Positions 1,158 through 20,000 of a stretch of DNA of 20,000 bases are shown here, one piece after another. Both the position numbers and the translations under genes were made by a program. The notes under the pieces are model-generated. The model saw only the letters and a program-made list of their open reading frames with translations. It did no database searches and had not been told where the DNA came from. The DNA comes from an uncultured virus (IMG/VR IMGVR_UViG_3300010355_000481) (lineage: Duplodnaviria > Heunggongvirae > Uroviricota > Caudoviricetes > Crassvirales), in IMG/VR virus record IMGVR_UViG_3300010355_000481. One strand, written 5' to 3'. Numbering within the stretch: the stretch's first letter is position 1; each line of letters begins with the position of its first letter.

Positions 1158-1319
1158 ATGCGAAAATTACTAGCTATACCTAAATTCTTACGATATACAT
1201 CTTATTCCTGGAGTTATGCAATAGATAAAACAATAACAGCAACCGTTTATAAAGAATTTTACTTTCATAACGTCGATTGTCGTATTATAAAAAATGCTAT
1301 AATTAGAAATTATGGATAA
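1158..1319 (+). CDS. mini-protein (53 aa, MRKLLAIPK...)
   Basis: ATG at 1158 directly after the upstream stop is preferred over the track start at 1125. Confidence 0.6.
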   Translation: MRKLLAIPKFLRYTSYSWSYAIDKTITATVYKEFYFHNVDCRIIKNAIIRNYG

Positions 1320-1497
1320 GATAAATATCACTTTAAAAGACAGAACCTTTCAATTACGCCTTAATCTAATGAAAGATATAAAACACCGTAATAATAAAGC
1401 TTCATTAGGTTATCGTATTTGTATTTCCACAGAACTTGCTGCCGTAATCAATATTTGTACGAATAGAGCTCGTTTACCTTTAATAAATCTCAATTAA
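1312..1497 (+). CDS. mini-protein (61 aa)
   Basis: ORF track; overlaps the upstream stop. Confidence 0.6.
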   Translation: MDKINITLKDRTFQLRLNLMKDIKHRNNKASLGYRICISTELAAVINICTNRARLPLINLN

Positions 1498-1499
1498 TT

Positions 1500-1871
1500 A
1501 TGATTACAGAATTTTTATTATTGTATATATTACTTATACATTTCTTAGCAGATTTTGCTTTACAGACTCATCATCAAGCTGTAAATAAAAGCACCGACGT
1601 AATGCAATTAACTTATCATTGTTTAGTCTATACATTTATATGGACATTAGCAGTGTTAGGATTACCATTTGTAATGGGTCCTAGTTATTTTGGATTTATA
1701 TGTTATACGTTCATTACTCATTATATTACTGATTATTGTACAAGTAGAATAGGCAAACCCTATTGGGAAAATCAAGATTTTCATAATGGGTTTGTTATAG
1801 TAGGGATTGATCAAATAATTCATTATATCACGCTCTATATTTCATTAAAATACATATTAAATATCTTATGA
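1500..1871 (+). CDS. DUF3307-family membrane protein
   Basis: Motifs HFLADFxLQT, HxxVY, HYITDY and GIDQIIH between hydrophobic helices. Confidence 0.8.
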   Translation: MITEFLLLYILLIHFLADFALQTHHQAVNKSTDVMQLTYHCLVYTFIWTLAVLGLPFVMGPSYFGFICYTFITHYITDYCTSRIGKPYWENQDFHNGFVIVGIDQIIHYITLYISLKYILNIL

Positions 1872-2026
1872 ACATTTCAAATATTCTTACTATTATCTTA
1901 TCGATAGTATTATTTAGCATAGCATGTCATTTGCTTAACCAACCATCAGATTGGGCTGCCGCATGCGGTATTCTGATAATTATTTCTTTAATTTATAAAC
2001 TTATAAAAACAATTCAAAAATTATGA
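1868..2026 (+). CDS. small two-TM membrane protein (52 aa) coupled to the SPFH gene
   Basis: Translated by hand: MNISNILTIILSIVLFSIACHLLNQPSDWAAACGILIIISLIYKLIKTIQKL; ATGA overlaps at both ends. Confidence 0.7.
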   Translation: MNISNILTIILSIVLFSIACHLLNQPSDWAAACGILIIISLIYKLIKTIQKL

Positions 2027-3057
2027 TTTCATTCGCATTAGCACTGATTATATCAGTAGTATTAGCAGCATCGTTAGGATTATTTAAATTTAAACGTTGG
2101 TCTATTTATCCCGAAAACGCTACCGTTACACAAGAGGAGTACGACAATAATCTACAATGGAAACGTGGTGGTTATGATGTCGGAGATCTTAAACCTAATA
2201 CATCTCTTAGATTTAATTATAGTCACTTATTTAAAGCTATAGGTGTATTATTTTTATTCTTATTCTTGTGGGCAGTATCACCATTAGGCTTTCAACGTAT
2301 CGATGCCCGTAATATTGGATTACAAATTAGTCGTACAGGTAATGATAAAGGTATACCTAGAGTAACTCCAGTTAAAGGATTAGTATTTTATAATGCTTGG
2401 AATAATGACGTAGAAGAAATATCTATAGGACAATTTCCCATTAAATACACTGAATTTGAAGTTCCAGCTTTAGGGGGAACACCTATACCTGTAGCTCCCG
2501 AAATGAATCTAAGCCTTAAACCGGAAACATATGCTCAATTATATGTACATGTATTAAAAGGAGGAGATTTAAGTTCATTAAAGGATAGTTGGATTAGAAC
2601 TAATGTAATTAATGCTATGGTATATGCTACTAATAAATTTACGCCCGATAGTATATTTAACTACGCAGAAACTTATCGCAATGAAGTGTATACTCAATTA
2701 TCTAAAACATTAGGATCATATTTTAACGTAGATCAAGTTAATGCAGGGCAACACCCTCCGAGAAGCATGAAAGAAGCATTACAAAAACAAGCAGATGCTG
2801 TATTAGCTACAAGACAAGCCCAATTAGATGAAACTCGTGAAATAGCTCAGAAAAATGCTAAAATAGCACAAGCACAAGGAGATTCAGCCAAAGTTGTAAT
2901 TGAAGCTTCCGCAGCTGCAGAAGCAATACGTCTAAAAACAAAAGAATTATCTAGAGAATACGTTGAATATACTAAATGGATAACAGCATCCCCTGATGTA
3001 CAGAGAGTATCTCAAACAGTATTAGGATCTGGAACGAATGTATTACTCAACAAGTAG
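2023..3057 (+). CDS. SPFH/band-7 (prohibitin-like) membrane protein
   Basis: TM helices, then RIDARNIGLQI...GLVFYNAW, and an Ala/Glu/Gln-rich coiled-coil tail (IAQAQGDSAKVVIEASAAAEAIRLK...EYVEY.KW). Confidence 0.85.
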   Translation: MISFALALIISVVLAASLGLFKFKRWSIYPENATVTQEEYDNNLQWKRGGYDVGDLKPNTSLRFNYSHLFKAIGVLFLFLFLWAVSPLGFQRIDARNIGLQISRTGNDKGIPRVTPVKGLVFYNAWNNDVEEISIGQFPIKYTEFEVPALGGTPIPVAPEMNLSLKPETYAQLYVHVLKGGDLSSLKDSWIRTNVINAMVYATNKFTPDSIFNYAETYRNEVYTQLSKTLGSYFNVDQVNAGQHPPRSMKEALQKQADAVLATRQAQLDETREIAQKNAKIAQAQGDSAKVVIEASAAAEAIRLKTKELSREYVEYTKWITASPDVQRVSQTVLGSGTNVLLNK

Positions 3058-3069
3058 TAACAATCTTGG

Positions 3070-3207
3070 TAGGTTATAGCTGAACTGGTTAGAGCATAGC
3101 TTCAAGTGAACGTTGACGATAGTGGTAAAAGACGACAATATCCTGTTCTGGTAGCTATCCAATCAGAAGTACAATGATTGGTGAGGGTTCGAATCCCTCT
3201 AACTTAA
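3070..3207 (+). tRNA. tRNA-like gene with a 51-nt anticodon loop (possible intron; possibly Leu-CAA) and a long variable arm
   Basis: Acceptor TAGGTTA/TAACTTA; D arm TAGCTGAACTGGTTAGAGC; anticodon stem TAGCT/AGCTA; variable stem CCAATCA/TGATTGG; T arm GAGGG-TTCGAAT-CCCTC. Confidence 0.75.
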
Positions 3208-3258
3208 CTATAACTCGGAGGCAATTGCTGATTGGTTATTTTTTCATCATGTTGGCTT

Positions 3259-3381
3259 TGGGCAGTGGCGAAATTGGTAAACGCACTGGTAAGTGAGTAA
3301 TAGAGTAAGCGTAAAATAGCACTGCTCCGCGCTGGAAGCGTCACGACCGGCATATTGGGGGTTCGAATCCCTCCTCCTGAA
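3259..3381 (+). tRNA. tRNA-like gene with a 55-nt structured anticodon loop; identity not assignable
   Basis: D arm TGGCGAAATTGGTAAACGC; anticodon stem CTGGT/ACCGG; T arm GGGGG-TTCGAAT-CCCTC; imperfect acceptor TGGGCAG/CTCCTGA. Confidence 0.7.
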
Positions 3382-3413
3382 CTAATAATTAATCATTAAA
3401 TAATAAAAAAACT

Positions 3414-3707
3414 ATGTATAGACCAAGTTATATCGAACCTGATAATATGAAATTATTAGGTTTTGACCTGTTAAAAGACAAAGATGGATATCTTAAATAC
3501 CAAAATGACGGTACCAAACATTATAATCCAGATTATAATTCAGAATATCCAGAACCAAAAGGTAAAGTTCTTATATATGTAAACACTACATACACTAAAA
3601 ATACATTTTATCTTAGTATACGTCAAGATGGCGATACCCGTAATTCTTACACTGGTATATGTCCGTCTGAAGAATTTTTTATCCAATTATTAAATAATAT
3701 AAGGTAA
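3414..3707 (+). CDS. hypothetical protein
   Basis: 97-aa ORF with A-rich leader. Confidence 0.75.
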   Translation: MYRPSYIEPDNMKLLGFDLLKDKDGYLKYQNDGTKHYNPDYNSEYPEPKGKVLIYVNTTYTKNTFYLSIRQDGDTRNSYTGICPSEEFFIQLLNNIR

Positions 3708-3883
3708 TGGAAAATATTCAAAATACTTTAAGGATAAGCATATTAAAACAATCTGATCGTAAAGCATGTGAAACTCTATTTAAAATGAGTGATACATATT
3801 ATCGAGAAAAAATTAAAAGAATACTTAGATCTCACCATATACCAATTTTACAACGTCAAATCGTCAATAAAAATCATTATTAA
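3707..3883 (+). CDS. mini-protein (58 aa, MENIQNTLR...)
   Basis: Translated by hand; TAATG overlap with the upstream gene. Confidence 0.6.
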   Translation: MENIQNTLRISILKQSDRKACETLFKMSDTYYREKIKRILRSHHIPILQRQIVNKNHY

Positions 3884-3903
3884 TTAAAAAACAAACAAAC
3901 ACA

Positions 3904-4473
3904 ATGTTTACAATTGTACGTCCTATAGCGACAAAATCAAAATCATCAGCAGAAACAATTGACTTACATTTAGTAAGCTTTTGTGAAGCAAATACTGATG
4001 TATTACCTCTAAATACTCCATTAATGTCTAACATCGGAGTTGATAATATAATTAGTCACAATGGTTATTTAATACCAGTAATAAATTCATATTATCAAAT
4101 ATTTGCTTCGACAGATTCATCATTAGGAGTTCCTCCGCCATCTAATTCTTTTATGAAAAAATATGCACAAGATTATAGAGATATGGAAGAAGTTCTTTTA
4201 TACTGGGAACAAAAAGATGGTAAATGGGTACCATTCGTACATCCACGTAAAGGGCATGTTATTATTAATAGTTTAGAAAAAGCACCTCAAGAAGGTCAAA
4301 TGGTATACTTCCCGTCAGATACTTTTAATGGATTTTTTCCTATTATTGAAACTATGAAAGTCGATAATCCAGAAGTAAACCTATTACATCAATATGGGGT
4401 AAAATTTGTTAATCCTTCTGATTTTTTAGATTATCATGTATTATTACAAAATAGTAAATCATTCCATCCTTAA
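3904..4473 (+). CDS. hypothetical protein
   Basis: 189-aa ORF with A-rich leader. Confidence 0.8.
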   Translation: MFTIVRPIATKSKSSAETIDLHLVSFCEANTDVLPLNTPLMSNIGVDNIISHNGYLIPVINSYYQIFASTDSSLGVPPPSNSFMKKYAQDYRDMEEVLLYWEQKDGKWVPFVHPRKGHVIINSLEKAPQEGQMVYFPSDTFNGFFPIIETMKVDNPEVNLLHQYGVKFVNPSDFLDYHVLLQNSKSFHP

Positions 4474-4631
4474 TGGTACAAGTACGTAATTTCATTGATC
4501 AAGCTTATGGTAGATTATATCAACCTAAATTTGATAAGTTAGATTACTATGCCTATCAAATATTAAAACAGGATCGATTCCTTATTCGTTTTCAAAGAAC
4601 TATTACTTATCATGCACAAACCCGAACCTAA
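4473..4631 (+). CDS. mini-protein (52 aa, MVQVRNFID...)
   Basis: Translated by hand; TAATG overlap. Confidence 0.6.
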   Translation: MVQVRNFIDQAYGRLYQPKFDKLDYYAYQILKQDRFLIRFQRTITYHAQTRT

Positions 4632-4684
4632 ATGGCCTACTATATTCTATATAATTCTTTTCTTGTTAATTTTAATATGGATAT

Positions 4685-4858
4685 ATGAAAAATCTTAATT
4701 ACAATATTTGGAATAATAAATTTTATACTGATATATCCGATGTCGATATAGATATTGATGACTATATTGATAGAAAATTATGGATGACAGTACTTCAATT
4801 AACTAGAGAAAATATTAGTCTCCCCGTATCCCAAAACTTAAAAAATGAAAAACATTAA
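4685..4858 (+). CDS. mini-protein (57 aa, MKNLNYNIW...NEKH)
   Basis: Translated by hand; 14-nt overlap with the next ORF. Confidence 0.65.
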   Translation: MKNLNYNIWNNKFYTDISDVDIDIDDYIDRKLWMTVLQLTRENISLPVSQNLKNEKH

Positions 4859-5012
4859 ACTTACTTTATGGGAGTATCATCCTCTTATACGTGAAAAAGT
4901 ATCTACAAATGTAGGTAATAAATTAGTTTGGGGGATGGATAATCCTGTTTTTCGTCAAATTAAAATTAACATTCATCTAGGTATATTTATAAACTTAAAA
5001 ACAATAAAATGA
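4845..5012 (+). CDS. mini-protein (55 aa, MKNIKLTLW...) with period-4 hydrophobic pattern
   Basis: Translated by hand; ATGA overlap with 5009. Confidence 0.65.
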   Translation: MKNIKLTLWEYHPLIREKVSTNVGNKLVWGMDNPVFRQIKINIHLGIFINLKTIK

Positions 5013-5569
5013 AACAAACAATATTAGTATGTAGTGATATCTTGACTTCTCATCAAGTATATCATTTAGTAGAAACTTGTAAAAACAAGTTTGAAAGTAT
5101 ACCATTAGAAATAACTTTATTTGATAAAGATGAACCGGTGTTCTTACTTATCCGTAAGGATGAAGAAGAAAAGTTTCATCTTGACGTAATGCCCACTTGT
5201 CGTAATCATCGAGTACCATGGGTACATCCTGAGTATTTTTATACAAATTATGCAGGATTATTGCAATTTTTAGAAGGTATTGTATGGATAGGGGAACATA
5301 AAGGTAATTTCCCAGAAACTCCTAACTATATTGTATGTAAAGGATTAACTCAAAGCTATATTTATTCTCATTATCGCGATATCCCCATGGATAGAGCTGT
5401 AAAAGAAGAATTATGGAATGGGGTTGGATTATGCGATGGTTGGACTTTAGCTTATAACAATAAATACCGACAATTAACGTATGCAAAAGAATTTCCAGGA
5501 ACTACTCTTGAAATGGGTCCTGACGAATTCTATGCTTGTAATTTTACGAAAAAACTAATTATTTCGTAA
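5009..5569 (+). CDS. hypothetical protein
   Basis: 186-aa ORF. Confidence 0.8.
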   Translation: MKQTILVCSDILTSHQVYHLVETCKNKFESIPLEITLFDKDEPVFLLIRKDEEEKFHLDVMPTCRNHRVPWVHPEYFYTNYAGLLQFLEGIVWIGEHKGNFPETPNYIVCKGLTQSYIYSHYRDIPMDRAVKEELWNGVGLCDGWTLAYNNKYRQLTYAKEFPGTTLEMGPDEFYACNFTKKLIIS

Positions 5570-5597
5570 AAAACACAAACTTATTTTTAAATCGTTT

Positions 5598-5638
5598 TTA
5601 AGTGTAGCCTGGCGATAACATCAAAGGGCGGCACTTAA
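5598..5638 (+). promoter_or_regulatory. hairpin carrying the GGCGATAANATCAA loop motif (copy 1)
   Basis: TTAAGTGT-A-GCCT-[GGCGATAACATCAAA]-GGGC-G-GCACTTAA, intergenic. Confidence 0.6.
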
Positions 5639-5661
5639 TACATAAAACTCATAAACAAAAT

Positions 5662-5880
5662 ATGAAAAAACAACATTTATTTTGGCTATTTGGATGCCAT
5701 TGGAAATTAGAATTTTATTGGTTTCTTATTCATCGTGGTATCGAACGCGAAATAGCAGCTCATATGGTCGATATTCATACTCAAGATGAATATTTAATGG
5801 AATATTTAATGCATGTACCTATATGGGAATGGAAAGAGTATACTACGTCAGATAATTATAAAAAATATGTACAATTATGA
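5662..5880 (+). CDS. hypothetical protein (72 aa)
   Basis: ORF track; A-rich leader. Confidence 0.7.
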   Translation: MKKQHLFWLFGCHWKLEFYWFLIHRGIEREIAAHMVDIHTQDEYLMEYLMHVPIWEWKEYTTSDNYKKYVQL

Positions 5881-6062
5881 TAATGTACCTTACATATTGT
5901 TATGAAGCGTATTATGAATACGCAAAATATATCGAAGATACTATATCTGCATTTTTAGCTCATAGCGCTATAAACCAATCTTGGGAAAAACCTACACGTT
6001 TCGTATTAAGTAAAAGCAAATCTACATTCATGTTACGTTACATTAATCTTTTAAAACGATGA
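5877..6062 (+). CDS. mini-protein (61 aa)
   Basis: ORF track; ATGA overlaps at both ends. Confidence 0.6.
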   Translation: MIMYLTYCYEAYYEYAKYIEDTISAFLAHSAINQSWEKPTRFVLSKSKSTFMLRYINLLKR

Positions 6063-6229
6063 TCAGCGTTGCAGGAACTAGCAATATTAAATTAAGCGAT
6101 TTAAGGTTCAATCTTAGAAGTGATATGTATGAAAATGTACATATAATAGTAATTAATAACGCTATGAGTATACATTTTGATATAAAAACTTTAATTAACC
6201 CTATATTAGATGTAATATGGAACACATGA
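6059..6229 (+). CDS. mini-protein (56 aa, MISVAGTSN...)
   Basis: Translated by hand; ATGA overlaps at both ends. Confidence 0.6.
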   Translation: MISVAGTSNIKLSDLRFNLRSDMYENVHIIVINNAMSIHFDIKTLINPILDVIWNT

Positions 6230-6405
6230 AAAACATTAAATGGGAAGTATCTAGAGAATTAATGGATAAAAGAATAGACTTTAGTACGGAAGTCAGAGAA
6301 TCTATAAACAACATAGAACATAGTATTATTACGGTTGGAATAAGAATATATCTTATGGATATTATTACTTTTATGCCTGAAGTAAATAAATGGAATTTTA
6401 AATAA
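6226..6405 (+). CDS. mini-protein (59 aa, MKNIKWEVS...)
   Basis: ATGA-coupled start at 6226 preferred over the track start at 6217. Confidence 0.65.
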   Translation: MKNIKWEVSRELMDKRIDFSTEVRESINNIEHSIITVGIRIYLMDIITFMPEVNKWNFK

Positions 6406-6455
6406 AGTTTTTACTTTAATTTGGTGATTCCAAACACTAGGTGATCTAGGTCAAC

Positions 6456-6486
6456 AAAAAAGGTTATGTTTTTTAACATAAACCTT
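6456..6486 (-). terminator. intrinsic terminator (minus strand)
   Basis: Minus strand reads AAGGTTTATGTT-AAAA-AACATAACCTT then TTTT. Confidence 0.55.
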
Positions 6487-6590
6487 AATTGAAGACACTC
6501 TACCAACTCACCGGAGCCACTGAGGCTGTATATAGTCAAATAGTCCAAAACTACATACATTTAACTTTGCTTCCATGATATCTATAACAC

Positions 6591-6605
6591 CTTGATTTTA
6601 TCGCC
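6591..6605 (-). promoter_or_regulatory. GGCGATAANATCAA loop motif (copy 2, minus strand)
   Basis: Reverse complement is GGCGATAAAATCAAG, enclosed by a CTATAA/TTATAG stem. Confidence 0.55.
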
Positions 6606-6757
6606 TATTTATAGGCATGGGGAGGGGGATTTATAGGTTTATGTCACCATCTTCGGTTGTCTTATCCATCCTTCGAGATAATTTACCCGGTAAGACTACA
6701 TTCTGCTTATTTTCTTCGCCAGAATTGCGCCAGACCACTTCCTAATGTGTTAAACAC

Positions 6758-6783
6758 AAAAAAGCCAGGCATTACACCTGGCT
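6758..6783 (-). terminator. intrinsic terminator (minus strand)
   Basis: Minus strand reads AGCCAGG-TGTAATG-CCTGGC-TTTTTT. Confidence 0.8.
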
Positions 6784-6873
6784 CTTATGTTTTCCAGGTG
6801 GAGAGACTCACCTGAAAATATCGTCGAAGAAAAACTCTTACTATATTAACTGTAAGAGTCTCTCTTTCTTACA
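6758..6873 (-). ncRNA. putative small RNA or attenuator leader of about 115 nt
   Basis: Bounded by a consensus Bacteroidota promoter and a terminator; two hairpins with complementary GAGAGACT/AGTCTCTC loop regions. Confidence 0.6.
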
Positions 6874-6875
6874 AT

Positions 6876-6906
6876 CAAAGGTAAGACAACTTTTAATAAC
6901 AACAAA
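6876..6906 (-). promoter_or_regulatory. Bacteroidota primary-sigma promoter (-33 TTTG, -7 TAnnTTTG)
   Basis: Minus strand TTTG (6906-6903), 19-nt spacer, TACCTTTG (6883-6876). Confidence 0.75.
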
Positions 6907-6933
6907 ATTTATTTAACTTAAAACAAAAAAAAG

Positions 6934-6999
6934 ATGAAAAAACAACTCAAAAAATCGGCAGTACAAACAAACATTGAGTACGAACAGTACTTGTATTAA
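6934..6999 (+). CDS. possible 21-aa peptide MKKQLKKSAVQTNIEYEQYLY
   Basis: A-rich leader (CTTAAAACAAAAAAAAGATG) closely resembles that of the gene at 175. Confidence 0.4.
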   Translation: MKKQLKKSAVQTNIEYEQYLY

Positions 7000-7010
7000 T
7001 TAACCCATAT

Positions 7011-7035
7011 TCCCCGGCGATAATATCAATGGGGA
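7011..7035 (+). promoter_or_regulatory. hairpin carrying the GGCGATAANATCAA loop motif (copy 3)
   Basis: TCCCC-[GGCGATAATATCAAT]-GGGGA, 15 nt upstream of the ATG at 7051. Confidence 0.6.
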
Positions 7036-7050
7036 TATAATTTTCAAAAA

Positions 7051-7288
7051 ATGAAACAATTAAGGTATACAATATACACAACAAAAGCTAATGCTATTAT
7101 ACGTAGTGGTTTAGGTAACGGTTTCCATGAAAGACAAGTTTTTTATCATTATAAAAAAAGAAACAGGAGTTAGTAATATATTTTCACTTATGAGAACTAT
7201 TTTATTTAATGAATTCTCAAAAAAGACAACTACGTATAAACACGAATTTACGTTACAAACCAAACCTCAAGTAAAAATAGTACTATGA
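7051..7288 (+). pseudogene. frameshifted paralog of ORF 7285-7515
   Basis: Frame stops at 7171. Removing one A from the A7 run (7153-7159) gives 78 aa ending YKHEFTLQTKPQVKIVL, versus YKHQFSLQTKEQVKIVL in the next gene. Confidence 0.7.
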
Positions 7289-7515
7289 AACAAACAAAAA
7301 TCCATATAGAATTACTTAAACTTGTACGAATTGTTTATGATTTTACTCAAGTAAGTTTTAAGATTAAATTATTAGCTTTTCAACAAGATAGTTCTTTACT
7401 TATTGTTAATGATATAATGGATGGAATTGTCAACAATGAATGTGAATTAATTGATAATAAGTACAAACACCAGTTTAGTTTACAAACTAAAGAACAGGTA
7501 AAAATCGTATTGTAG
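7285..7515 (+). CDS. small protein (76 aa)
   Basis: ORF track; C-terminus paralogous to the upstream frameshifted copy. Confidence 0.75.
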   Translation: MKQTKIHIELLKLVRIVYDFTQVSFKIKLLAFQQDSSLLIVNDIMDGIVNNECELIDNKYKHQFSLQTKEQVKIVL

Positions 7516-7516
7516 T

Positions 7517-7699
7517 ATGAAAGATATAAAACACCGTATTTATACTAATACGGCAGGAAACATTATTGATGGATTATACCTTATTTGTAATCCTAAAACA
7601 AATTGGGTAATCTGGAACAGATTAGATAGTTATATATGGGTACATATTTACTTTGAAATCAAACAAAATATATTATCACTAATTATTACTAATAGATGA
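7517..7699 (+). CDS. mini-protein (60 aa) with period-4 hydrophobic pattern
   Basis: Residues 4, 8 ... 56 are I,I,T,I,L,C,T,I,L,I,I,I,I,I. Confidence 0.7.
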   Translation: MKDIKHRIYTNTAGNIIDGLYLICNPKTNWVIWNRLDSYIWVHIYFEIKQNILSLIITNR

Positions 7700-7878
7700 G
7701 ATACACTAGTCGAACTATATATGAATTTACGTCAGGAAAGCTTGACCATACTACCGAAAGTGTATTTATTACAAATGTAAGTTGGATGCTTACTTCAACC
7801 ATAAAAACACCATTATGGAGTAGATTAATTACTCTCGTATACATCAATATTTGGCTAAACGTAAAAAATAATATATGA
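7696..7878 (+). CDS. mini-protein (60 aa) with period-4 pattern; paralog of 7517
   Basis: Residues 4, 8 ... 60 are T,I,T,L,T,F,V,L,I,L,L,V,I,V,I; ATGA overlaps. Confidence 0.7.
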   Translation: MRYTSRTIYEFTSGKLDHTTESVFITNVSWMLTSTIKTPLWSRLITLVYINIWLNVKNNI

Positions 7879-8048
7879 AATATATTCGCGTTTATTTAAA
7901 AACAAATACGAAAGAAAGGGTCAATATTGATCATATTTCAGGGTCAATATCAACATATATATGGAGATATGTCGACTATCAATTACATGGTCCACTAACA
8001 TTCCAAATTTTACGTTCAATCTCTTTAACAATTAAAACAAATATATGA
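7875..8048 (+). CDS. mini-protein (57 aa, MKYIRVYLK...)
   Basis: Translated by hand; ATGA overlaps at both ends. Confidence 0.65.
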   Translation: MKYIRVYLKTNTKERVNIDHISGSISTYIWRYVDYQLHGPLTFQILRSISLTIKTNI

Positions 8049-8825: not shown

Positions 8826-8838
8826 AACAAATTAGATT

Positions 8839-9111: not shown

Positions 9112-9112
9112 A

Positions 9113-11387: not shown

Positions 11388-11389
11388 GT

Positions 11390-12242: not shown

Positions 12243-12285
12243 GTAACTACTACAAATATTTATTCACCAATCTTAAAAATTATAT

Positions 12286-12850: not shown

Positions 12851-13283
12851 AAAAATTTTAATTATTGGGCAAAGTCCCCCAAGCCCTGACGTCGTACAAA
12901 AAGTACCGTATGACACTACGATGTTATATGAAATGCTTTCTTGGGTAGGTATATCTAAAGATCAGGCTCAAAATTTGTTTGAATTTGAAGCTTTGACAGA
13001 TGTATTTCCAGGATATGCTAAGATGAGTGGCCACAAAGTTCCTTCTTCCGAAGCTAAAGCAATATATTGGGATTCAACCCTTAAAGATAAAATAGCTAAT
13101 CATAGTCGTATTATCTTATTAGGCCGAGAATCTCAAAAGTACGTAGAAAAGCGTTGGCCGGAAAAATATAACGATAAAAACACTTTATGTCTTATCCATC
13201 CAAGTATTCGAAACAGCGGAAAGATCAAAGAACATAAAGAAATTATTACTAACCTTTTAAAAACCTTTATATGGGACTCTTAA
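12843..13283 (+). CDS. uracil-DNA glycosylase superfamily protein
   Basis: ILIIGQSP (motif A), IILLG and LIHPS (motif B). Confidence 0.75.
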   Translation: MTEKILIIGQSPPSPDVVQKVPYDTTMLYEMLSWVGISKDQAQNLFEFEALTDVFPGYAKMSGHKVPSSEAKAIYWDSTLKDKIANHSRIILLGRESQKYVEKRWPEKYNDKNTLCLIHPSIRNSGKIKEHKEIITNLLKTFIWDS

Positions 13284-13543: not shown

Positions 13544-13605
13544 CTTTACAAGAAGCTCGTATCGAAGAACGACGAAAAGCCAGATCATTTAGTGAAAAAG
13601 GTTAA
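13435..13605 (+). CDS. small basic protein (56 aa, MRKTEDFKIP...)
   Basis: Translated by hand; fills the gap to 13592 but overlaps the upstream ORF by 109 nt. Confidence 0.5.
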   Translation: MRKTEDFKIPARTFKEGAKSYTHKPSQKYLDRRAELALQEARIEERRKARSFSEKG

Positions 13606-13759
13606 TGCTATATATCTATGCAATATAGTTATCAATGGTTGTTCTAAATTAATAAGACCTAATAAAATTATAAGATTAATTAGGTCTCAAATATTTATCG
13701 ATCAGTATGGGATTTACGTAGATATTGTATTAAATAGACAGTATGAATCAAGTTCGTAG
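13592..13759 (+). CDS. mini-protein (55 aa, GTG start, MKKVNAIYL...)
   Basis: Translated by hand; overlaps both neighbours. Confidence 0.5.
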   Translation: MKKVNAIYLCNIVINGCSKLIRPNKIIRLIRSQIFIDQYGIYVDIVLNRQYESSS

Positions 13760-13937
13760 AAAAGTTTCTTTTATAAGTAACCGTATTACTAAACAAGGTT
13801 TTTCATCAACTGAATTATATAGTGTAGAGTGGGATCTAAGGATAAAAGTATATCGACATACTTCAATTATTTTAGAAGATGTTATAAAAATTCCTACTTC
13901 GATAATTAAATTTAATACTCATGCGATCAGTCGTTAA
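13743..13937 (+). CDS. mini-protein (64 aa)
   Basis: ORF track. Confidence 0.6.
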   Translation: MNQVRRKVSFISNRITKQGFSSTELYSVEWDLRIKVYRHTSIILEDVIKIPTSIIKFNTHAISR

Positions 13938-14067
13938 AAAACTTGATATACCTATAATTAGAATAACAGTAGGTACAGTAAGTTCAGATGTTTTAATGGA
14001 AGGAGCTACATATATGAATATTTTCTCTATAAGGGTTAAACGTGATATTTTAAATAACTCAATATGA
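13921..14067 (+). CDS. mini-protein (48 aa, MRSVVKKLD...)
   Basis: Translated by hand; ATGA overlap with the RNase H gene. Confidence 0.55.
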   Translation: MRSVVKKLDIPIIRITVGTVSSDVLMEGATYMNIFSIRVKRDILNNSI

Positions 14068-14714
14068 TCGAAATATATACTGACGGAGGTTGTGTTGGTA
14101 ATGGAAAACCTGAAGCAATCGGTGCTTATGCATTTATTGTTGTAAAAGATGGTGAAATTATCTATGAGGAGGCGGTCCGAATAGAAGCACCATGTACAAA
14201 TAATATTGCAGAATTAACGGCTTGTATACAGGCTTTAGATTATTGCCACAATGCTCCCATCAAACCTACTAATTTCTATAGCGATTCTAACTATGTCATT
14301 CGTGGTATCAACGAATGGCTTGATGGTTGGGTTCGTAAAGATTTCCGAGTAGATGATGGATTCCGTCCAAACGCAGAATTATGGAAACAAGTTGTAACTC
14401 TCCGCCCACATTTTAGAACCCTAAATTATATTTGGGTAAAAGGACATGATGATAACATCTTTAACAATAGATGTGATGAATTATGTACTCAAGCAATGGC
14501 CTTAAAGCCAAAGACAAAAAACAATTCAAAAGCCGTTAAATTTCCCATCCCAGCCTATAAAGAAGGTTATGGAGTAGGTGAAGTCAATTTAGGCTCCAAC
14601 GATTCGTTATTTGCTTACCAATTTAGCAACGAACTCGGCATTCATGGGTTTGACAACCCAAAAAACAGTGGGATTAGTGTTTTAGTCCCTTTATCAAAAT
14701 TTATTAAATCTTAA
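14064..14714 (+). CDS. rnhA: ribonuclease HI with a C-terminal extension
   Basis: IYTDGGC, TNNIAEL, YSDSNYV, NAELW, WVKGH and NNRCDEL; the catalytic D/E/D/D residues are present. Confidence 0.95.
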   Translation: MIEIYTDGGCVGNGKPEAIGAYAFIVVKDGEIIYEEAVRIEAPCTNNIAELTACIQALDYCHNAPIKPTNFYSDSNYVIRGINEWLDGWVRKDFRVDDGFRPNAELWKQVVTLRPHFRTLNYIWVKGHDDNIFNNRCDELCTQAMALKPKTKNNSKAVKFPIPAYKEGYGVGEVNLGSNDSLFAYQFSNELGIHGFDNPKNSGISVLVPLSKFIKS

Positions 14715-14726
14715 AAATCAAAAAAA

Positions 14727-15698
14727 ATGTTAACAGAATTAACAGCACAAGACGAAGCAAGAATCATTGAAGTACGTGACAAGTATTTAGCGAAGCTATT
14801 TAACTACGTATTATTGGAGAAATTTGACGCAGAAAAAATGAAAGCTGCCGTAAATGATTTGTATGCTTTTGCAAATCTTCCTTTACCAAAGGATATTATT
14901 ATTGCAGACAGCCCTAAAGCTGCCCAAAAAATCTGTAACGATTACAATCGTACATACAACAACGATCCATCTTTACCTGATCAAACTTGGGAATTTGCAA
15001 TTACAGGAGACGTATCAGATTACAACTGGTTATCTTTTTATGAATTCTTCATGCCGATGGAAGGTATCTTAACGGACGAAGCAAAAACAAACTTACAACG
15101 TATCATCGATATCGTAGATACAGGTATTTTTACTAGTATCCAATTGGAAGTATTGTGTATCCCGGTTAAAATGCCTAATTTCATTAGTCGTGATGCCGAA
15201 AACAATTTACACTGTACTAGTGGTCCAGCTATCACATTTGTTGATGGATATGGTCAATATTACATCCACGGTCGTTTCTTAGAGCAATCTTGGTTTGATA
15301 AAACTATCAATAAAACATTGACTCGCGAAGAGTACTTAGCTATTTCGAATGAAGATATCAAAGGTTGTATTAATACGATCATGGATGCTGAATTTGGCCC
15401 TCAATACTTAGCTGAGTTCTTAGGAGCTACGGAAATCAGCCGTGTAACTATAACTCACCCTACACACACAGAAGAATTAGTTTTGTTCCGTACGAAAGAA
15501 AAATTCTCTTTTGCTAGAGATAGTAAAGGTAATGAGAATGCTTCGTTAGCTTGGATTCAAATGACTTGTCCTTCAACTCAAAACATTTACATGATTTCTA
15601 CGTGTCCGACATTCGAAGATGCCCTTGAGTGTGCTAAATTTCACCGTTCAGAGTTGATTCCTAAAGATATTCCTTATATCTGGCAATCTGCTTCTTAG
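14727..15698 (+). CDS. DUF6745-like protein
   Basis: N-terminal LTxxDExRIxxxRDKY, DSP, WLSFYEFF, RDAENNLHCTSGPAITFVDGYGQYYIHG, ISNEDIK and CPST. Confidence 0.7.
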   Translation: MLTELTAQDEARIIEVRDKYLAKLFNYVLLEKFDAEKMKAAVNDLYAFANLPLPKDIIIADSPKAAQKICNDYNRTYNNDPSLPDQTWEFAITGDVSDYNWLSFYEFFMPMEGILTDEAKTNLQRIIDIVDTGIFTSIQLEVLCIPVKMPNFISRDAENNLHCTSGPAITFVDGYGQYYIHGRFLEQSWFDKTINKTLTREEYLAISNEDIKGCINTIMDAEFGPQYLAEFLGATEISRVTITHPTHTEELVLFRTKEKFSFARDSKGNENASLAWIQMTCPSTQNIYMISTCPTFEDALECAKFHRSELIPKDIPYIWQSAS

Positions 15699-15706
15699 TA
15701 GAAAAA

Positions 15707-15738
15707 TTTGTAAATATCATATAAGTAACCTACCTTTA
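15707..15738 (+). promoter_or_regulatory. near-consensus Bacteroidota promoter
   Basis: TTTG, 20-nt spacer, TACCTTTA (one mismatch), upstream of 15777. Confidence 0.45.
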
Positions 15739-15776
15739 CTTAACAAAATAAAATAAAACTTTAAAAACCACTTATT

Positions 15777-16160
15777 ATGGCGAATTCAAAATTCAAATTC
15801 ACAGGAATCATGCACCGTCAAGGTGATGTACAAATTGCTCAACTTGAAAAATTACCTACCGAGGTAAAACCAATTGAGAAACAATTCTTAGCAGCGTCGG
15901 AGCGTTCAGGCTCTATGCATGCCTTATTCGGAAACTATCAACAATACGAAGTTGAGGGCGGAATCGTTCTTGATTGTAAAGAAGATTGTTTGATGAACCA
16001 CAGTTTAACCTCACACCTTCAAGGTTTAGGTATGGATCAAGTTCGTGAATTACCTAAGAAAGATCACGGCGCTATCTCTTTACCGAAAGGAGTATACTTC
16101 GTATCGATCCAACCTCGATTCGACCCAATGCAAGGCTTTAAAACACCTGTTAAAGACTAG
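15777..16160 (+). CDS. RQGDV-motif protein, probable partner of the DUF6745-like protein
   Basis: HRQGDV...LAASERSGSMH...H...DHGAISLPKGVYFVSIQ...VKD. Confidence 0.75.
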   Translation: MANSKFKFTGIMHRQGDVQIAQLEKLPTEVKPIEKQFLAASERSGSMHALFGNYQQYEVEGGIVLDCKEDCLMNHSLTSHLQGLGMDQVRELPKKDHGAISLPKGVYFVSIQPRFDPMQGFKTPVKD

Positions 16161-16182
16161 TATTTATTTAAGATTAAATTAT

Positions 16183-16217
16183 ATCCCCTCTGGCTAACTG
16201 CTGGAGGGGATTTTTTT
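16183..16217 (+). terminator. intrinsic terminator
   Basis: ATCCCCTCTGGC-TAACT-GCTGGAGGGGA followed by T7. Confidence 0.85.
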
Positions 16218-16376
16218 ATGAAAAATATCAGTAAACACACACATCGTTTAATAGGGTTTGAATTTTGGATTAACTTTAATGTTATGATCAATAACACAGT
16301 TGAAGTTGATATAAGAAAGTACTGTTGGAGTATTATCAGTGAACCTTTAATATTAAGAAATTATGAGAAACATTGA
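16218..16376 (+). CDS. mini-protein (52 aa, MKNISKHTH...NYEKH)
   Basis: Translated by hand. Confidence 0.6.
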   Translation: MKNISKHTHRLIGFEFWINFNVMINNTVEVDIRKYCWSIISEPLILRNYEKH

Positions 16377-16527
16377 AATTACCGGAATTAAACTTGCTAG
16401 ATTACATAGTTCATTAATAACAAGAGTCTATCCTAATGTTTCATCTTTAATATATAACATAATTCATCGAACTTTATCTAGAGTAGCTCCAAGAAATATA
16501 GTTCAAACTATGATAAATAATATATGA
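16363..16527 (+). CDS. mini-protein (54 aa, MRNIEITGI...)
   Basis: Translated by hand; overlaps both neighbours. Confidence 0.6.
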   Translation: MRNIEITGIKLARLHSSLITRVYPNVSSLIYNIIHRTLSRVAPRNIVQTMINNI

Positions 16528-16709
16528 AAAATATCAATGAAGAATTGTGTTTTACAGTTCAAAATCCTTTTTACCATATACATGACCAAAATAGAGCGAT
16601 AACAGTGTCTAATCTCGTATGGGAACATGTAATAGACATTAATGAGGTATTAATCCCTGACGAAACCATTATAAACCGTATAAAACTAGTCAATTATGAA
16701 AAGCATTAG
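16524..16709 (+). CDS. mini-protein (61 aa)
   Basis: ORF track. Confidence 0.65.
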   Translation: MKNINEELCFTVQNPFYHIHDQNRAITVSNLVWEHVIDINEVLIPDETIINRIKLVNYEKH

Positions 16710-16893
16710 ATTAGATATACGACAGTCTCATCATCTTTATTGGGAAAATATAGTAGAGAAAAGTAATCCTTATTTTAGAAAAAATAAGTTTAAAAAATAC
16801 AAAAATACCAAAGTAAAGAGATTCTTTTTTATGAGATCTTTAGTTGATTTTGAGAATATTAAACGATGGATCGAAACAAACTATGCGCAGTAA
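16696..16893 (+). CDS. mini-protein (65 aa)
   Basis: ORF track. Confidence 0.6.
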   Translation: MKSIRLDIRQSHHLYWENIVEKSNPYFRKNKFKKYKNTKVKRFFFMRSLVDFENIKRWIETNYAQ

Positions 16894-17074
16894 ACACGGA
16901 CATATAGGAAATTTTATATCCCCGCTTTGGGACCAATTAGGAAATGGAACATACCTTTTCCACCACAATTACCCTATACTTAAGTTAAAAAATTTAAGGG
17001 TAATTTTTATAGACGCTGGATTTGACTTCCTTTTTACAGTCGAACTAGTTGATTACAAATTAATAAATAATTAA
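16883..17074 (+). CDS. mini-protein (63 aa, MRSKHGHIG...)
   Basis: ATG at 16883 preferred over the track start at 16844. Confidence 0.6.
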   Translation: MRSKHGHIGNFISPLWDQLGNGTYLFHHNYPILKLKNLRVIFIDAGFDFLFTVELVDYKLINN

Positions 17075-17088
17075 TAAAAAAAAATACA

Positions 17089-17661
17089 ATGAAAAAAATT
17101 ATCAACATCGTTTATGCTTTCAGCAAAACAGACAAAACATTTAAATCGATCGTTACGGCAAAAGATTACGATCAATTACTTCCTATCATGGAAAGAAACA
17201 GAGACAAAGCTTCTTGGTTTGTATACAATATTAAAGATAAAACTATCAAAGATATGTATGCACAACATAATCCAGGCAAAATTGCATTCTTTCGCGAATT
17301 AGTAGGTAAAATAGAAACTCGTAAATCTATCGTATACGCCCACGGCGTAACTAAGGATAAAAACGAATGTACTAAGAAATTCTTAGATGCACGTTTTAAG
17401 CAAAACTTAGATTACGTAACCAAAAATACCCCTAAACATAAGCTATATGCTCCTATTACGGATCCTAAAGCTGTTATCGAAGACCTACGTAAACCTTTCA
17501 CAGATGTCTTAGCGGTATCGAAATATATGAAAGAAAGACGTAAATTTACCCAACAATTAATTAAACTCCAAGATGAAACCATCGACATTACCATACTCCA
17601 ACATAAAGGATTTCAACTCAAAAGTGGAAATAGACAAAAGAAAGAGTTACAACACTATTAA
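17089..17661 (+). CDS. hypothetical basic protein
   Basis: 190-aa Lys-rich ORF with A-rich leader. Confidence 0.8.
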   Translation: MKKIINIVYAFSKTDKTFKSIVTAKDYDQLLPIMERNRDKASWFVYNIKDKTIKDMYAQHNPGKIAFFRELVGKIETRKSIVYAHGVTKDKNECTKKFLDARFKQNLDYVTKNTPKHKLYAPITDPKAVIEDLRKPFTDVLAVSKYMKERRKFTQQLIKLQDETIDITILQHKGFQLKSGNRQKKELQHY

Positions 17662-17842
17662 AGAGTTACCAACTACATCAAAGAACTATCACCAGGTCAT
17701 GGATCTGTGTGATAGTTTTTATGAATTATACGGTGATCATGAAATGTTTTTCGACCTTATCGATCACCATACTGCCATTTACCAAAAACTATGTGAATCA
17801 CCGTTACATATAGAATTTCCTTACCCTTTTAATTATAATTAA
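17573..17842 (+). CDS. hypothetical protein
   Basis: 89-aa ORF overlapping the upstream gene by 89 nt; start uncertain. Confidence 0.55.
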   Translation: MKPSTLPYSNIKDFNSKVEIDKRKSYNTIKELPTTSKNYHQVMDLCDSFYELYGDHEMFFDLIDHHTAIYQKLCESPLHIEFPYPFNYN

Positions 17843-18039
17843 TGAACTATTTACCACGATATGCTCGTAATTCTTTTAGGGATTGGATGAATCTTAATTT
17901 TCAATCTGATATAAAAGTTAAAACTATCAGTGTAGATTTAAGGTTTGAAATTAGTTCTGAATTTAGACCTTTTGCATTCAGTAAAAAATATGTTTTTGAT
18001 TTTGCAAATTTTATAGACACAGTTAAAAATAAATTATGA
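17842..18039 (+). CDS. mini-protein (65 aa)
   Basis: ORF track; TAATG and ATGA overlaps. Confidence 0.65.
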   Translation: MNYLPRYARNSFRDWMNLNFQSDIKVKTISVDLRFEISSEFRPFAFSKKYVFDFANFIDTVKNKL

Positions 18040-18230
18040 ATACAATTACACATTTATTATATTCTACGATACGTAGGTTTCAAATAAATGCAAACTTATA
18101 TGATCAACTAAGTATGTCGGTAGACCAATACGTAGATAAATTATTATGGGGATCTTTAAGTAACGCCAACACTGTATTTAATTATAAAGCACATATGAAA
18201 CAAATTACTAGACATGATGAAATACGTTGA
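18036..18230 (+). CDS. mini-protein (64 aa)
   Basis: ORF track. Confidence 0.65.
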   Translation: MNTITHLLYSTIRRFQINANLYDQLSMSVDQYVDKLLWGSLSNANTVFNYKAHMKQITRHDEIR

Positions 18231-18405
18231 TCACCGTATAAACCCTTTATTAAGACGATATCGTCTTAATGTTTGTATAGAACCTCAAGAAGTCACTTCA
18301 GAAATTGTACTTCACGCATTAAGTGAGTTAAATAACTGGTCAAATAAATTTTTTGGTTACGCACCTATAATTAGACAAATTGTTAATAATTATGAGATAC
18401 ATTGA
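18214..18405 (+). CDS. mini-protein (63 aa), paralog of 18392
   Basis: MKYVD...ELNNWS...RQI. Confidence 0.7.
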   Translation: MMKYVDHRINPLLRRYRLNVCIEPQEVTSEIVLHALSELNNWSNKFFGYAPIIRQIVNNYEIH

Positions 18406-18580
18406 TGAATTTATAGCAATCCCATTATCAAAATATTGGGGTAGTACTTTTAAAGAAACTCCTACAGTCCAAAATAATATTCAAATTCGTATAGCAAGAG
18501 AATTAAATACTTGGTCAGATATGTATTTTATTAATTATGAACTCACCCTTAAACAAATATTAGATGAATGGAGTAACTAG
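18392..18580 (+). CDS. mini-protein (62 aa, MRYIDEFIA...)
   Basis: ATG at 18392; MRYID...ELNTWS...KQI. Confidence 0.7.
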   Translation: MRYIDEFIAIPLSKYWGSTFKETPTVQNNIQIRIARELNTWSDMYFINYELTLKQILDEWSN

Positions 18581-18728
18581 AATAATTTGGGAACCATTAC
18601 GTAAAGAATTTTATAATTTTTTACAAACTGAAAAACCTGATCCTAAAATTTATCGTATGATATTTCAACCCTTAAATGAAATATCAACTTGGCATTTAAA
18701 CTCATTAGATAGCTATGAAACAAATTAA
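18564..18728 (+). CDS. mini-protein (54 aa, MNGVTRIIWEPL...)
   Basis: Translated by hand; similar to the next two ORFs. Confidence 0.65.
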   Translation: MNGVTRIIWEPLRKEFYNFLQTEKPDPKIYRMIFQPLNEISTWHLNSLDSYETN

Positions 18729-18873
18729 AAAAATAATGTGGTTACCTTTGTACGAGCTATTTTACAGTAAAATAATGTATCGAAATCGTAACAATACAGT
18801 CTATCAAATATTATTTGAAGACTTAATGGATGAAGTAAATTTTTTTGATTTTAATAACGATAATTTAGAATGA
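18715..18873 (+). CDS. mini-protein (52 aa, MKQIKKIMWLPL...)
   Basis: Translated by hand. Confidence 0.65.
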   Translation: MKQIKKIMWLPLYELFYSKIMYRNRNNTVYQILFEDLMDEVNFFDFNNDNLE

Positions 18874-19037
18874 AACAAGTTAACGGCATAATATGGGCTC
18901 CATGGAGCCCGAATTATTATAGAAGTTCATTTTGGTTTAAATTAAAGCTTAATTATGATCTTCCTCATGATATATTATATGATAAATTAGAAGACGAAAT
19001 AAGTTTTACCCAAGTAGAAATATTAAACCTATTATAA
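18870..19037 (+). CDS. mini-protein (55 aa, MKQVNGIIWAPW...)
   Basis: Translated by hand; ATGA overlap. Confidence 0.65.
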   Translation: MKQVNGIIWAPWSPNYYRSSFWFKLKLNYDLPHDILYDKLEDEISFTQVEILNLL

Positions 19038-19061
19038 AAACATTAAATCTATTATAAAAAC
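19022..19061. repeat. 20-bp tandem duplication
   Basis: ATTAAACCTATTATAAAAAC followed by ATTAAATCTATTATAAAAAC (19/20 identical). Confidence 0.85.
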
Positions 19062-19331
19062 ATGAATGATAAACCATTAGATCGCGATTATGAGCACGCA
19101 ATTAGAGAGATTGAAAGTGTCTCTGAAGTGTTAACCTCTCTAAAAGAAAAAATTGAAGCATTAGAAGAGGAAAATGAAACTCTCGAAGATAAACTATCCA
19201 CCAGAGATAATCAAATCTCCAAATTAGAGGAAGAAATTAAAGAACTTGAAGAAAAACGTGATAACTTAGACGCCAAAGTAAACAATCTTGAAATTGAATT
19301 ACAAGATTGGCAATTAGGGAATAATTCCTAA
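19062..19331 (+). CDS. acidic coiled-coil protein
   Basis: 89 aa with a continuous heptad pattern (LKEKIEALEEENETLEDKL...). Confidence 0.8.
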   Translation: MNDKPLDRDYEHAIREIESVSEVLTSLKEKIEALEEENETLEDKLSTRDNQISKLEEEIKELEEKRDNLDAKVNNLEIELQDWQLGNNS

Positions 19332-19335
19332 GACT

Positions 19336-19539
19336 ATGAAACAAATTAATCAGCAAATTAAATTAAACTTAAAAATTGCAGATTTTATTAACAATATTGC
19401 AAATTTAAGTAGTTGTATTGGTATATTTATTATTAGTCATATTCTTGCTAATTTATGGTCGTCTCATTATATGGCTATCCCTGAAACAGATACAACTACA
19501 TTTTTTAACGTTTTACATAATATTCAACGTAATATATGA
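19336..19539 (+). CDS. mini-protein (67 aa)
   Basis: ORF track. Confidence 0.6.
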   Translation: MKQINQQIKLNLKIADFINNIANLSSCIGIFIISHILANLWSSHYMAIPETDTTTFFNVLHNIQRNI

Positions 19540-19733
19540 TAGAAGTTTATAATATTATTAATGAAGACATTTTTAAACCATTTTGGGCTTGTGCTGATGA
19601 ATTAGACACTATAAATCATAAAGTTATGGTGTATGCTATTACTATATGTTGGCCTAATCATTATTTATCTTCAGAAAATAGCGGAAACGTAGATTATGGA
19701 AGAGCAGTACTTAATGTAAACAATAATGTATAA
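19536..19733 (+). CDS. mini-protein (65 aa)
   Basis: ORF track; WPNHY resembles WSSHY of the upstream ORF. Confidence 0.6.
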   Translation: MIEVYNIINEDIFKPFWACADELDTINHKVMVYAITICWPNHYLSSENSGNVDYGRAVLNVNNNV

Positions 19734-19736
19734 ACA

Positions 19737-19913
19737 ATGAATCAAATCTATATGCACTTTCGGGTACGAAAAATATTTAATAATTGTTGTATTTATTATT
19801 ATTACCATGAATATACTACGACTATATCTGAAAAATTAGTAAATGAAATTACTAAAAAACGTAGATTATTTATTACTTTTTTAAAATTTAACGATCAATA
19901 TGAGAAACATTAA
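19737..19913 (+). CDS. mini-protein (58 aa, MNQIYMHFR...QYEKH)
   Basis: Translated by hand. Confidence 0.6.
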   Translation: MNQIYMHFRVRKIFNNCCIYYYYHEYTTTISEKLVNEITKKRRLFITFLKFNDQYEKH

Positions 19914-20000
19914 TAATAAGTTTACTGAATTAATGGTCGAACTTAGAGCACCGGCATATGTTTCTATAGAAAAAAGTGCTGATTATATGTATCGTGAAGG
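19900..20000 (+). CDS. mini-protein truncated by the window edge (MRNINNKFT...)
   Basis: Open to the end of the window; same junction type as other mini-ORFs. Confidence 0.55.
   Translation, partial: MRNINNKFTELMVELRAPAYVSIEKSADYMYRE

Follow-up and report, generated by a model that had tools for sequence, protein, structure and literature searches.

The 20,000-nucleotide stretch analysed here (hereafter the window), taken from the uncultured Crassvirales record IMGVR_UViG_3300010355_000481 of IMG/VR, is AT-rich (27–36% GC across the window) and holds nearly all of its genes on the plus strand, the majority of them very short open reading frames (ORFs) that lie, mostly in runs, between larger genes. 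With a floor of at least 35 amino acids (aa) and with 13 nested alternate-frame ORFs excluded, 69 plus-strand ORFs tile 91% of the window. Seven starts were shifted to ATGs next to, or overlapping with, the stop of the preceding gene, and after this refinement 47 ORFs of 38–76 aa, called minis below and designated by their start position, could be separated from 22 ORFs of 89–344 aa. The original prediction, made from the sequence letters, had spoken of about 40 mini-ORFs, mostly of 48–67 aa and arranged in runs. Indeed, 43 of the 47 minis fall within this length range (mean 58 aa, standard deviation 6.9; 25 of them below 60 aa), and nine runs are present. The minis were mapped as follows, mainly from ORF calls with refined starts.

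1158–1497, plus strand: two minis, 1158–1319 and 1312–1497 (ORF calls, refined starts)
1868–2026, plus strand: hydrophobic 52-aa mini, likely a membrane protein judging from hydrophobic stretches in its sequence, between the DUF3307 and phrog_200 genes
4473–5012, plus strand: run of 3 minis; mini 4685–4858 ends NEKH, has a 14-nt overlap with the next start and shows weak kinship to mini 11893
5662–6405, plus strand: run of 4 minis, including 5877 and 6059
7051–8048, plus strand: run of 6 minis, in which 7127/7285 and 7517/7696/7875 form two groups of paralogues
9791–10515, plus strand: run of 4 minis, of which 9791/9973/10149 are paralogues in tandem that share a conserved [KD]-x-L-W
11044–12242, plus strand: run of 7 minis, including the repeat protein 11044–11238
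13592–14067, plus strand: run of 3 minis between the uracil-DNA glycosylase and RNase H genes (ORF calls)
16218–17074, plus strand: run of 5 minis; 16218 and 16524 end NYEKH, each with a 14-nt overlap with the next start
17842–19037, plus strand: run of 7 minis with the groups 18217/18392 (weakly 18036) and 18564/18715/18870
19336–20000, plus strand: run of 3 minis and a fourth beginning at 19900 (ORF calls)

Each of the nine runs is almost entirely covered by reading frames on one strand only. ORFs of at least 45 aa cover 0.90–1.00 of the bases on the plus strand and 0–0.34 on the minus strand, compared with a mean cover of 0.03–0.07 and a maximum of 0.37–0.81 when each run was shuffled 200 times. 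The minis had also been proposed to be coupled by short overlaps, and 41 of 47 do begin between −30 and +4 nt from the upstream stop. The ATGA arrangement (−4) prevails with 18 cases, followed by a 14-nt overlap (7), a 17-nt overlap (3) and TAATG (3). Codon periodicity of the minis parallels that of the larger genes but is weaker, with G frequencies at codon positions 1/2/3 of 0.20/0.14/0.08 and 0.28/0.13/0.09, respectively. Moreover, strain contigs diverged by 2–7%, of the kind seen in sequence runs X3, X4 and X6, retain entire runs of minis, such as 6995–8634 and 14055–17942. Frameshifting or recoding was considered as a source of the small ORFs and rejected, since the starts lie at upstream stops and successive ORFs are in different frames. 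By these measures the minis are real, coupled genes.

Compared with the larger proteins, the minis are enriched in tryptophan (1.8-fold), arginine (1.6-fold), isoleucine (1.45-fold) and asparagine (1.4-fold) and contain about half as much alanine, glycine and proline. The richness in isoleucine, asparagine and tryptophan that had been noted at first sight is thus real, but that claimed for tyrosine amounts to just 1.2-fold. As a whole, the amino-acid composition tracks the expectation from base composition (r=0.94), with tryptophan at three times that expectation. The minis had further been described as devoid of obvious transmembrane helices, which fails for two of them, 1868–2026 and 8709–8825, both clear membrane proteins as read from their sequences. 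Mini 11044–11238 encodes a 64-aa tryptophan-rich protein made of 12- and 36-nt repeats, in which tryptophan mostly occupies every fourth residue (QVWEGVWEGVW...). With two membrane proteins and one repeat protein among them, some minis differ in kind.

Pairwise, profile and profile–profile tests all failed to bear out the proposal that the minis make up a single expanded family and yielded only small families. With phmmer, six of the 1081 possible pairs scored at E<1e-3, all of them neighbours: 7127/7285, 18214/18380 (elsewhere 18217/18392), 18564/18715, 18715/18870, 9973/10149 and 9791/9973; 30 shuffled sets gave a mean of 0.07 pairs. A Smith–Waterman comparison with Gumbel fits, carried out with the first five residues removed, detected 11 pairs at p<0.001, where 1.1 would be expected; at p<5e-4 it delineated six families with 14 members and left 33 singletons, and the shuffled set gave none. 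Looser evidence adds 7517/7696/7875 and 18870 to the families. At a finer level, 7127 and 7285 have their C-terminal 17 aa in common, and the N-terminus of mini 7051 resembles that of 7517. Searches with hidden Markov models (HMMs) of five clusters brought up no further mini that outscored shuffled or reversed decoys, and in the all-against-all profile comparison recommended along with the one-family proposal, HHalign placed none of 595 profile pairs above 50% probability.

A similar picture emerged when six N-terminal and seven C-terminal residues were removed and fragments of the larger window proteins served as control: the similarity between clusters was near that of the control (mean z 0.18 vs 0.10; pairs with z>4, 0.85% vs 0.59%). 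Adjacent minis resembled each other more than minis of different runs did (mean z 1.68 vs 0.16, p=0.003), but the excess became marginal after removal of the strong pairs (p=0.08). As to the small helical fold that had been proposed, AlphaFold2 predicted two helices for one cluster and three for another, at predicted local distance difference test (pLDDT) values of 60.3 and 56.9; since these values are too low, the helices were not counted. The ESM Atlas returned no usable match for the minis. Collectively, by sequence comparison, the minis appear to comprise five or six small families, which cover 14–18 of them and consist mostly of tandem neighbours, together with about 33 orphans.

Beyond these families, mini 1312 carries an internal ATG at 1369, and the 28 nt from 1369 to 1396 are 93% identical to 7517–7544, the start of mini 7517 (MKDIKHR...), 6 kb away. 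This match suggests exchange or copying of start segments.

Gene content of the array varies between close strains by loss or replacement of whole cassettes. In strain contigs from run X4, position 5893 is joined to 6215 (5894–6214 gone), which leaves out minis 5877 and 6059, and position 9473 is joined to 10317 (9474–10316 gone), which leaves out the 9791 cluster; in addition, 3383–3892 is replaced by 720 other letters. A contig from run X6 has 11387–11574 swapped for 22 letters and has lost mini 11390. The joints of the strain contigs show 2–9 nt of shared letters. Another junction of run X4 links 12306 to 12864 (12307–12863 gone) through nine shared letters and lacks an HNH gene, as expected for a mobile endonuclease gene. 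Changes inside minis were found as well. Database protein P0128 is a chimera composed of the front of mini 18715 and the back of mini 18870, and protein P0123 corresponds to mini 18217 with a different C-terminus. Since P0128 joins two tandem paralogues, unequal crossing-over seems to be active. Among the 40 listed strain differences out of 736, the minis hold 5 synonymous and 7 non-synonymous changes and the larger genes 16 and 12, which is too few to judge selection.

The family look of the minis appears to stem mainly from their termini, and the C-termini would be written by the initiation region of the next gene and by the overlaps. Indeed, C-termini such as K-x-N-I or L-K-x-N-L are encoded by the A-rich pre-start stretch and the ATGA overlap, and larger genes with overlapping downstream starts have similar ends, e.g. 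FIKQNV and TLKNR. The 14-nt overlap provides a second recurrent terminus.

4845–4858, 16363–16376, 16696–16709, 18392–18405 and 19900–19913, plus strand: 14-nt overlap of start and stop, ATGARAAACATTRA, at each of the five places; variants occur at 9791, 18217 and 18715

One frame of this element, ATGARAAACATTRA, reads ...[YN]-E-[KI]-H-stop (YE-x-x-stop) and the other M-[KR]-[NSY]-I. The resulting tails in the window are NYEKH (twice), QYEKH, NYEIH and NEKH, those of the form N/Q-Y-E-K/I-H lying at 16364–16376, 16697–16709, 18393–18405 and 19901–19913. In metagenome locus L024, which is 99.9% identical to the window, the array goes on just past the window end with minis that terminate in QYERYYS and QYEKY.

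Outside the window, relatives of the minis were scarce. None of the 47 matched PHROGs, phi17:2 DNA, or any ORF in 22 related loci (20 IMG/VR loci around the anchor gene described below and two phi17:2 loci). In Pfam, 46 of 47 were without a match at E≤0.01, and mini 11044 matched DUF4816 with E=0.007, below the cutoff. A word-indexed profile search with the 18036–19037 cluster in 5.8 billion proteins recovered only the phage's own proteins and near-identical variants. An exhaustive HMMER search with the [KD]-x-L-W set in 1.84 billion representatives matched seven proteins, of which five are own or near-identical (P0129–P0132 and P0124), one, P0133, is a diverged homologue of mini 9791, and the last, P0134, is a protein of 2115 aa (E=5.5e-05). 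The minis appear, as far as these comparisons reach, to be restricted to one lineage. With 25.5 minis per 10 kb, which take up 46% of its bases, the window is denser in them than any of the related loci, where 2–20 per 10 kb were counted.

The following larger genes were annotated with Pfam and PHROGs.

1500–1871, plus strand: DUF3307 membrane protein gene (Pfam/PHROGs)
2023–3057, plus strand: phrog_200 gene (Pfam/PHROGs)
10490–11047, plus strand: phrog_34888 anchor gene, 185 aa, 47% identity to gp004 of phi17:2 and phi4:1
12308–12850, plus strand: HNH-AP2 (NUMOD4) homing endonuclease gene with a TTG start (Pfam/PHROGs)
12843–13283, plus strand: uracil-DNA glycosylase (UDG) gene (Pfam/PHROGs)
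14064–14714, plus strand: RNase H gene (Pfam/PHROGs)

The set comprising the HNH endonuclease, UDG, RNase H and phrog_34888 proteins identifies the window as phage DNA. The phrog_34888 anchor resembles gp004 of the Cellulophaga phages phi17:2 and phi4:1 (genus Lightbulbvirus), and the phrog_200 protein has a weak tblastn match to the phi17:2 gene annotated SPFH/Band 7 (25% over 132 aa, E 1.3e-06). A 323-aa protein of the window has no relatives in the viral contigs or phage records. Megablast with the entire window as query matched none of 50,697 phage records, and an exact search with 30 nt likewise found nothing in the viral contigs. An identical phrog_34888 protein sequence was found on a contig of 138,596 bp, which was taken as the phage's own. 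Two metagenome loci from activated sludge, L023 and L024, are 99.9% identical to the window, and parts of the window are present in 24 runs that belong to 19 studies on wastewater or sludge. The genome, judged by these genes and matches, is that of a tailed phage of about 139 kb from activated sludge or wastewater, distantly related to the Cellulophaga Lightbulbvirus phages. This distant kinship points to a host among the Bacteroidota. Members of this phylum initiate translation without a Shine–Dalgarno sequence, and the regions upstream of the starts, A-rich and so poor in G that no position from −16 to −1 has this base in more than 8 of 69 sequences, fit such a host.

Several features of the window lie outside the protein-coding genes. 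Two tRNA-like genes on the plus strand, 3070–3207 and 3259–3381, carry anticodon-loop inserts of 51 and 57 nt and have a common T-arm, GGGTTCGAATCCCTC. With the Rfam tRNA model, the first scores 38.7 bits, which exceeds the cutoff, and the second 24.5 bits, which does not; ARAGORN detects neither, and they may be intron-bearing or decayed tRNAs. The sole long gene-free stretch, 6406–7050 (645 nt), contains a two-way hairpin at 6760–6786, and no RNA family reached threshold in it. A strong terminator-like hairpin was located directly before the run that begins at 16218.

16183–16211, plus strand: terminator-like hairpin of 12 pairs followed by a T run (hairpin scan)

For the window as a whole, terminator-like sites numbered 10 against 7.3 expected. 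Promoter-like sites were not in excess (131 in the window vs 126 in shuffles), and the Bacteroidota-type promoter pattern matched three times, always on the minus strand, with 1.6 matches expected. The motif CTTAAAAAY occurs in 8 copies against 2.0 expected, a number reached in none of 200 shuffles, and seven copies are on the plus strand (154–162, 786–794, 4994–5002, 9097–9105, 12272–12280, 14710–14718 and 19368–19376). Five of the plus-strand copies stand 7–21 nt upstream of the starts of larger genes, not of minis, and a sixth stands about 28 nt before the TTG start of the HNH gene. The motif may be an initiation or promoter element.

Taken as a whole, the window is best explained, and in our judgement probably so, as a hyperplastic accessory region shaped by tandem duplication, rapid divergence and the loss of cassettes. 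Tandem duplication would create small paralogue families, the bodies of which diverge fast; neighbouring copies would recombine by unequal crossing-over; and whole cassettes would be lost or replaced at gene boundaries. The minis would be translated by coupling, through the overlap of stop and start and without a Shine–Dalgarno sequence. This accessory region is probably early-expressed. From the position of the minis, and by analogy with cases such as T4 55.2 as presented in the available part of its report (PMC4396842), they could act in host takeover or counter-defence.

Hyperplastic regions are known from T4-type phages, where small ORFan genes sit in blocks of changing content between the core genes, and the comparison made here extends as far as the accessible text of two papers on them (PMC2839356, PMC4122927). 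Like these regions, the window is densely filled with small genes that have no assigned function and lie amid conserved genes for replication or repair (here DUF3307, SPFH-like, phrog_34888, UDG and RNase H). As in these regions, too, whole genes are inserted, deleted or replaced among close strains, and a homing endonuclease is located within the block. Unlike them, on the same portions of text, it is without promoter-stem-loop (PeSL) cassettes between genes, the window genes overlapping with no spacer left, and it stands apart in the extreme density of its minis and in their common start motif. The early regions of phi17:2 and phi4:1 offer a parallel in gene content: they have the anchor gp004 (47% identity), a UDG (47%) and the weak SPFH-like match, in a similar gene order and with many small hypothetical genes on one strand. 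However, the small proteins of phi17:2 look ordinary and seldom begin with the start motif (3 of 30), and the interval from anchor to UDG holds three genes in phi17:2 but seven minis and the HNH gene in the window.

Four properties that extend across the small families weigh against this explanation. First, the start M-[KRN]-x-[ILV], with which most minis had been said to begin, is indeed found in 31 of 47 minis, but in just 1 of 22 larger window proteins and, among the small proteins annotated in phi17:2, in 3 of 30 (Fisher p about 1e-6); roughly 10% of the small ORFs of the 22 related loci have it too. No overlap class lacks it, and 9 of the 10 minis without upstream overlap carry it, so that the ATGA and 14-nt overlaps do not fully explain it, and overlap constraint as its full cause was rejected on this ground. 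Second, the mini lengths are narrowly distributed, with 43 of 47 in the interval of 48–67 aa, where only 44% of the small ORFs in related phages fall. Third, tryptophan clusters at positions 29–43, in 17.4 of 36 groups as against 9.9 ± 2.2 expected (p=0.0005, with the interval chosen post hoc). Fourth, a leave-one-out HMM connects four loci (4685, the 9791 cluster, 11893 and 18036), a set picked post hoc for its [KD]-x-L-W; decoys scoring higher were 0 of 940 for 4685, 0 of 940 for 11893 and 5 of 940 for 18036. Together, these properties fit a common origin for more minis than the sequence tests show.

To localize the shared signal along the proteins, position-specific scoring matrices were built by leaving one group out and were scored on the held-out group, with the area under the receiver operating curve (AUC) as the measure. 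For residues 2–5 the AUC was 0.87 when shuffles served as the reference and 0.78 when real small proteins of related phages did. Residues 6–9 gave 0.62 against shuffles and residues 10–31 gave 0.46–0.59. At the other end, the C-terminal blocks as far as −16 mostly gave about 0.6–0.65, with 0.80 for −9 to −16 against the small proteins of phi17:2, and those beyond −16 gave 0.47–0.57. Residue 8 is hydrophobic in 30 of 47 minis (13 expected), and aromatic residues are over-represented at 9 and 16. On these comparisons, M-[KRN]-x-[ILV] at the N-terminus is a real signature, specific to the minis.

A single hyper-divergent family would account for this signature. All or nearly all minis would then go back to one founder, about 58 aa long, that was duplicated in tandem again and again, and the copies would have diverged so fast that nothing is left in common but start motif, unit length and mid-protein tryptophan. 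The start motif, the unit length and the scarcity of relatives elsewhere would hardly result from the import of unrelated genes. Besides these three features, the first of which is specific both to the minis and to the lineage, this scenario draws on the cross-locus links 4685–11893 and 16218–18036 and on the active unequal crossing-over seen in the chimeric P0128. A composition near the base-composition expectation is as in young or fast-evolving sequence, and the two mini groups searched had one diverged homologue outside the lineage, which speaks against piecemeal import. We nevertheless consider such a universal family unlikely. The clusters were linked neither by HMMs nor by HHalign, the cross-validated signal is absent from residues 10–31, and similarity between trimmed clusters was about that of real-protein controls. 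Furthermore, the excess similarity of neighbours was marginal once strong pairs had been set aside, and two membrane minis and one internal repeat protein stand among the supposed relatives.

Tails of the YE type are also found in related phages. In the related loci L003, L005, L008 and L009, 33 proteins of 58–159 aa end in YE[IV][YFC], mostly YEIY or YEIF and often with N before; with the tail removed they belong to 20 sequence families (examples are L009:7167–7373 and L008:11148–11501). A slightly wider tail pattern was present in 36 of 1561 plus-strand ORFs and in 1 of 1692 minus-strand ORFs. Since the tail codons vary synonymously (TAT/TAC, GAA/GAG, ATT/ATA/ATC), the tail is kept at the protein level. 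A literature search found nothing that pairs 'YEIY' with phage.

These tails allow a scenario in which the array is a gene nursery, where minis of about 58 aa are copied and recombined at start/stop junctions and their bodies diverge until no kinship can be recognised, with the terminal motifs kept as portable tags. The tags would be M-[KRN]-x-hydrophobic-[KRN]-x-x-hydrophobic at the N-terminus and, for part of the minis, YE[KI][HY] at the C-terminus. We regard this nursery, its tags included, as doubtful. A further scenario dispenses with common descent and takes the minis as unrelated bodies with a common N-terminal motif, some also with a YE[KI][HY] tail, which are addressed to one partner or process, a role that the YEI[YF] tail may likewise have in related phages. 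The 33 proteins of 20 families in related phages speak for it, as do the YE-type tails in the window and just past its end and the independence of the N-terminal motif from overlap class. On the other hand, no partner is known, the tail is found in just 5 of 47 window minis, and residues 6–9 contribute little. In addition, every YE tail of the window includes the ATG of the next gene, so that the overlap alone can explain it. Shared tags on unrelated bodies therefore strike us as quite improbable. Finally, it is hardly credible that the small ORFs are not genes but chance frames or frameshift-broken pieces of larger genes: the near-random composition, the lack of homology support and the 17 minus-strand ORFs of at least 48 aa that arise by chance in the window would agree with this, but the one-strand cover far above that of shuffles, the ATG at the upstream stop in 41 of 47 minis, the codon periodicity, the 99.9% identity of independent assemblies, the whole runs kept in diverged strains and the reading frames maintained among paralogues do not.

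A hyperplastic accessory region of this kind is of interest for the study of phage–host interaction. New inhibitors of host machinery and defence come mainly from small early proteins of phages, and a block of 47 such genes is a rich target for screening. Since the comparisons do not allow the minis to be handled as one family, findings on one of them would not be transferable to the others. The strain differences constitute a natural record of the turnover of a gene library. Either the start motif specific to the minis or the YEI[YF] tail of the related-phage proteins could mark a common partner; if the nursery scenario were true, this clade of phages would use terminal peptides to direct a shifting repertoire of early proteins to a single shared partner.

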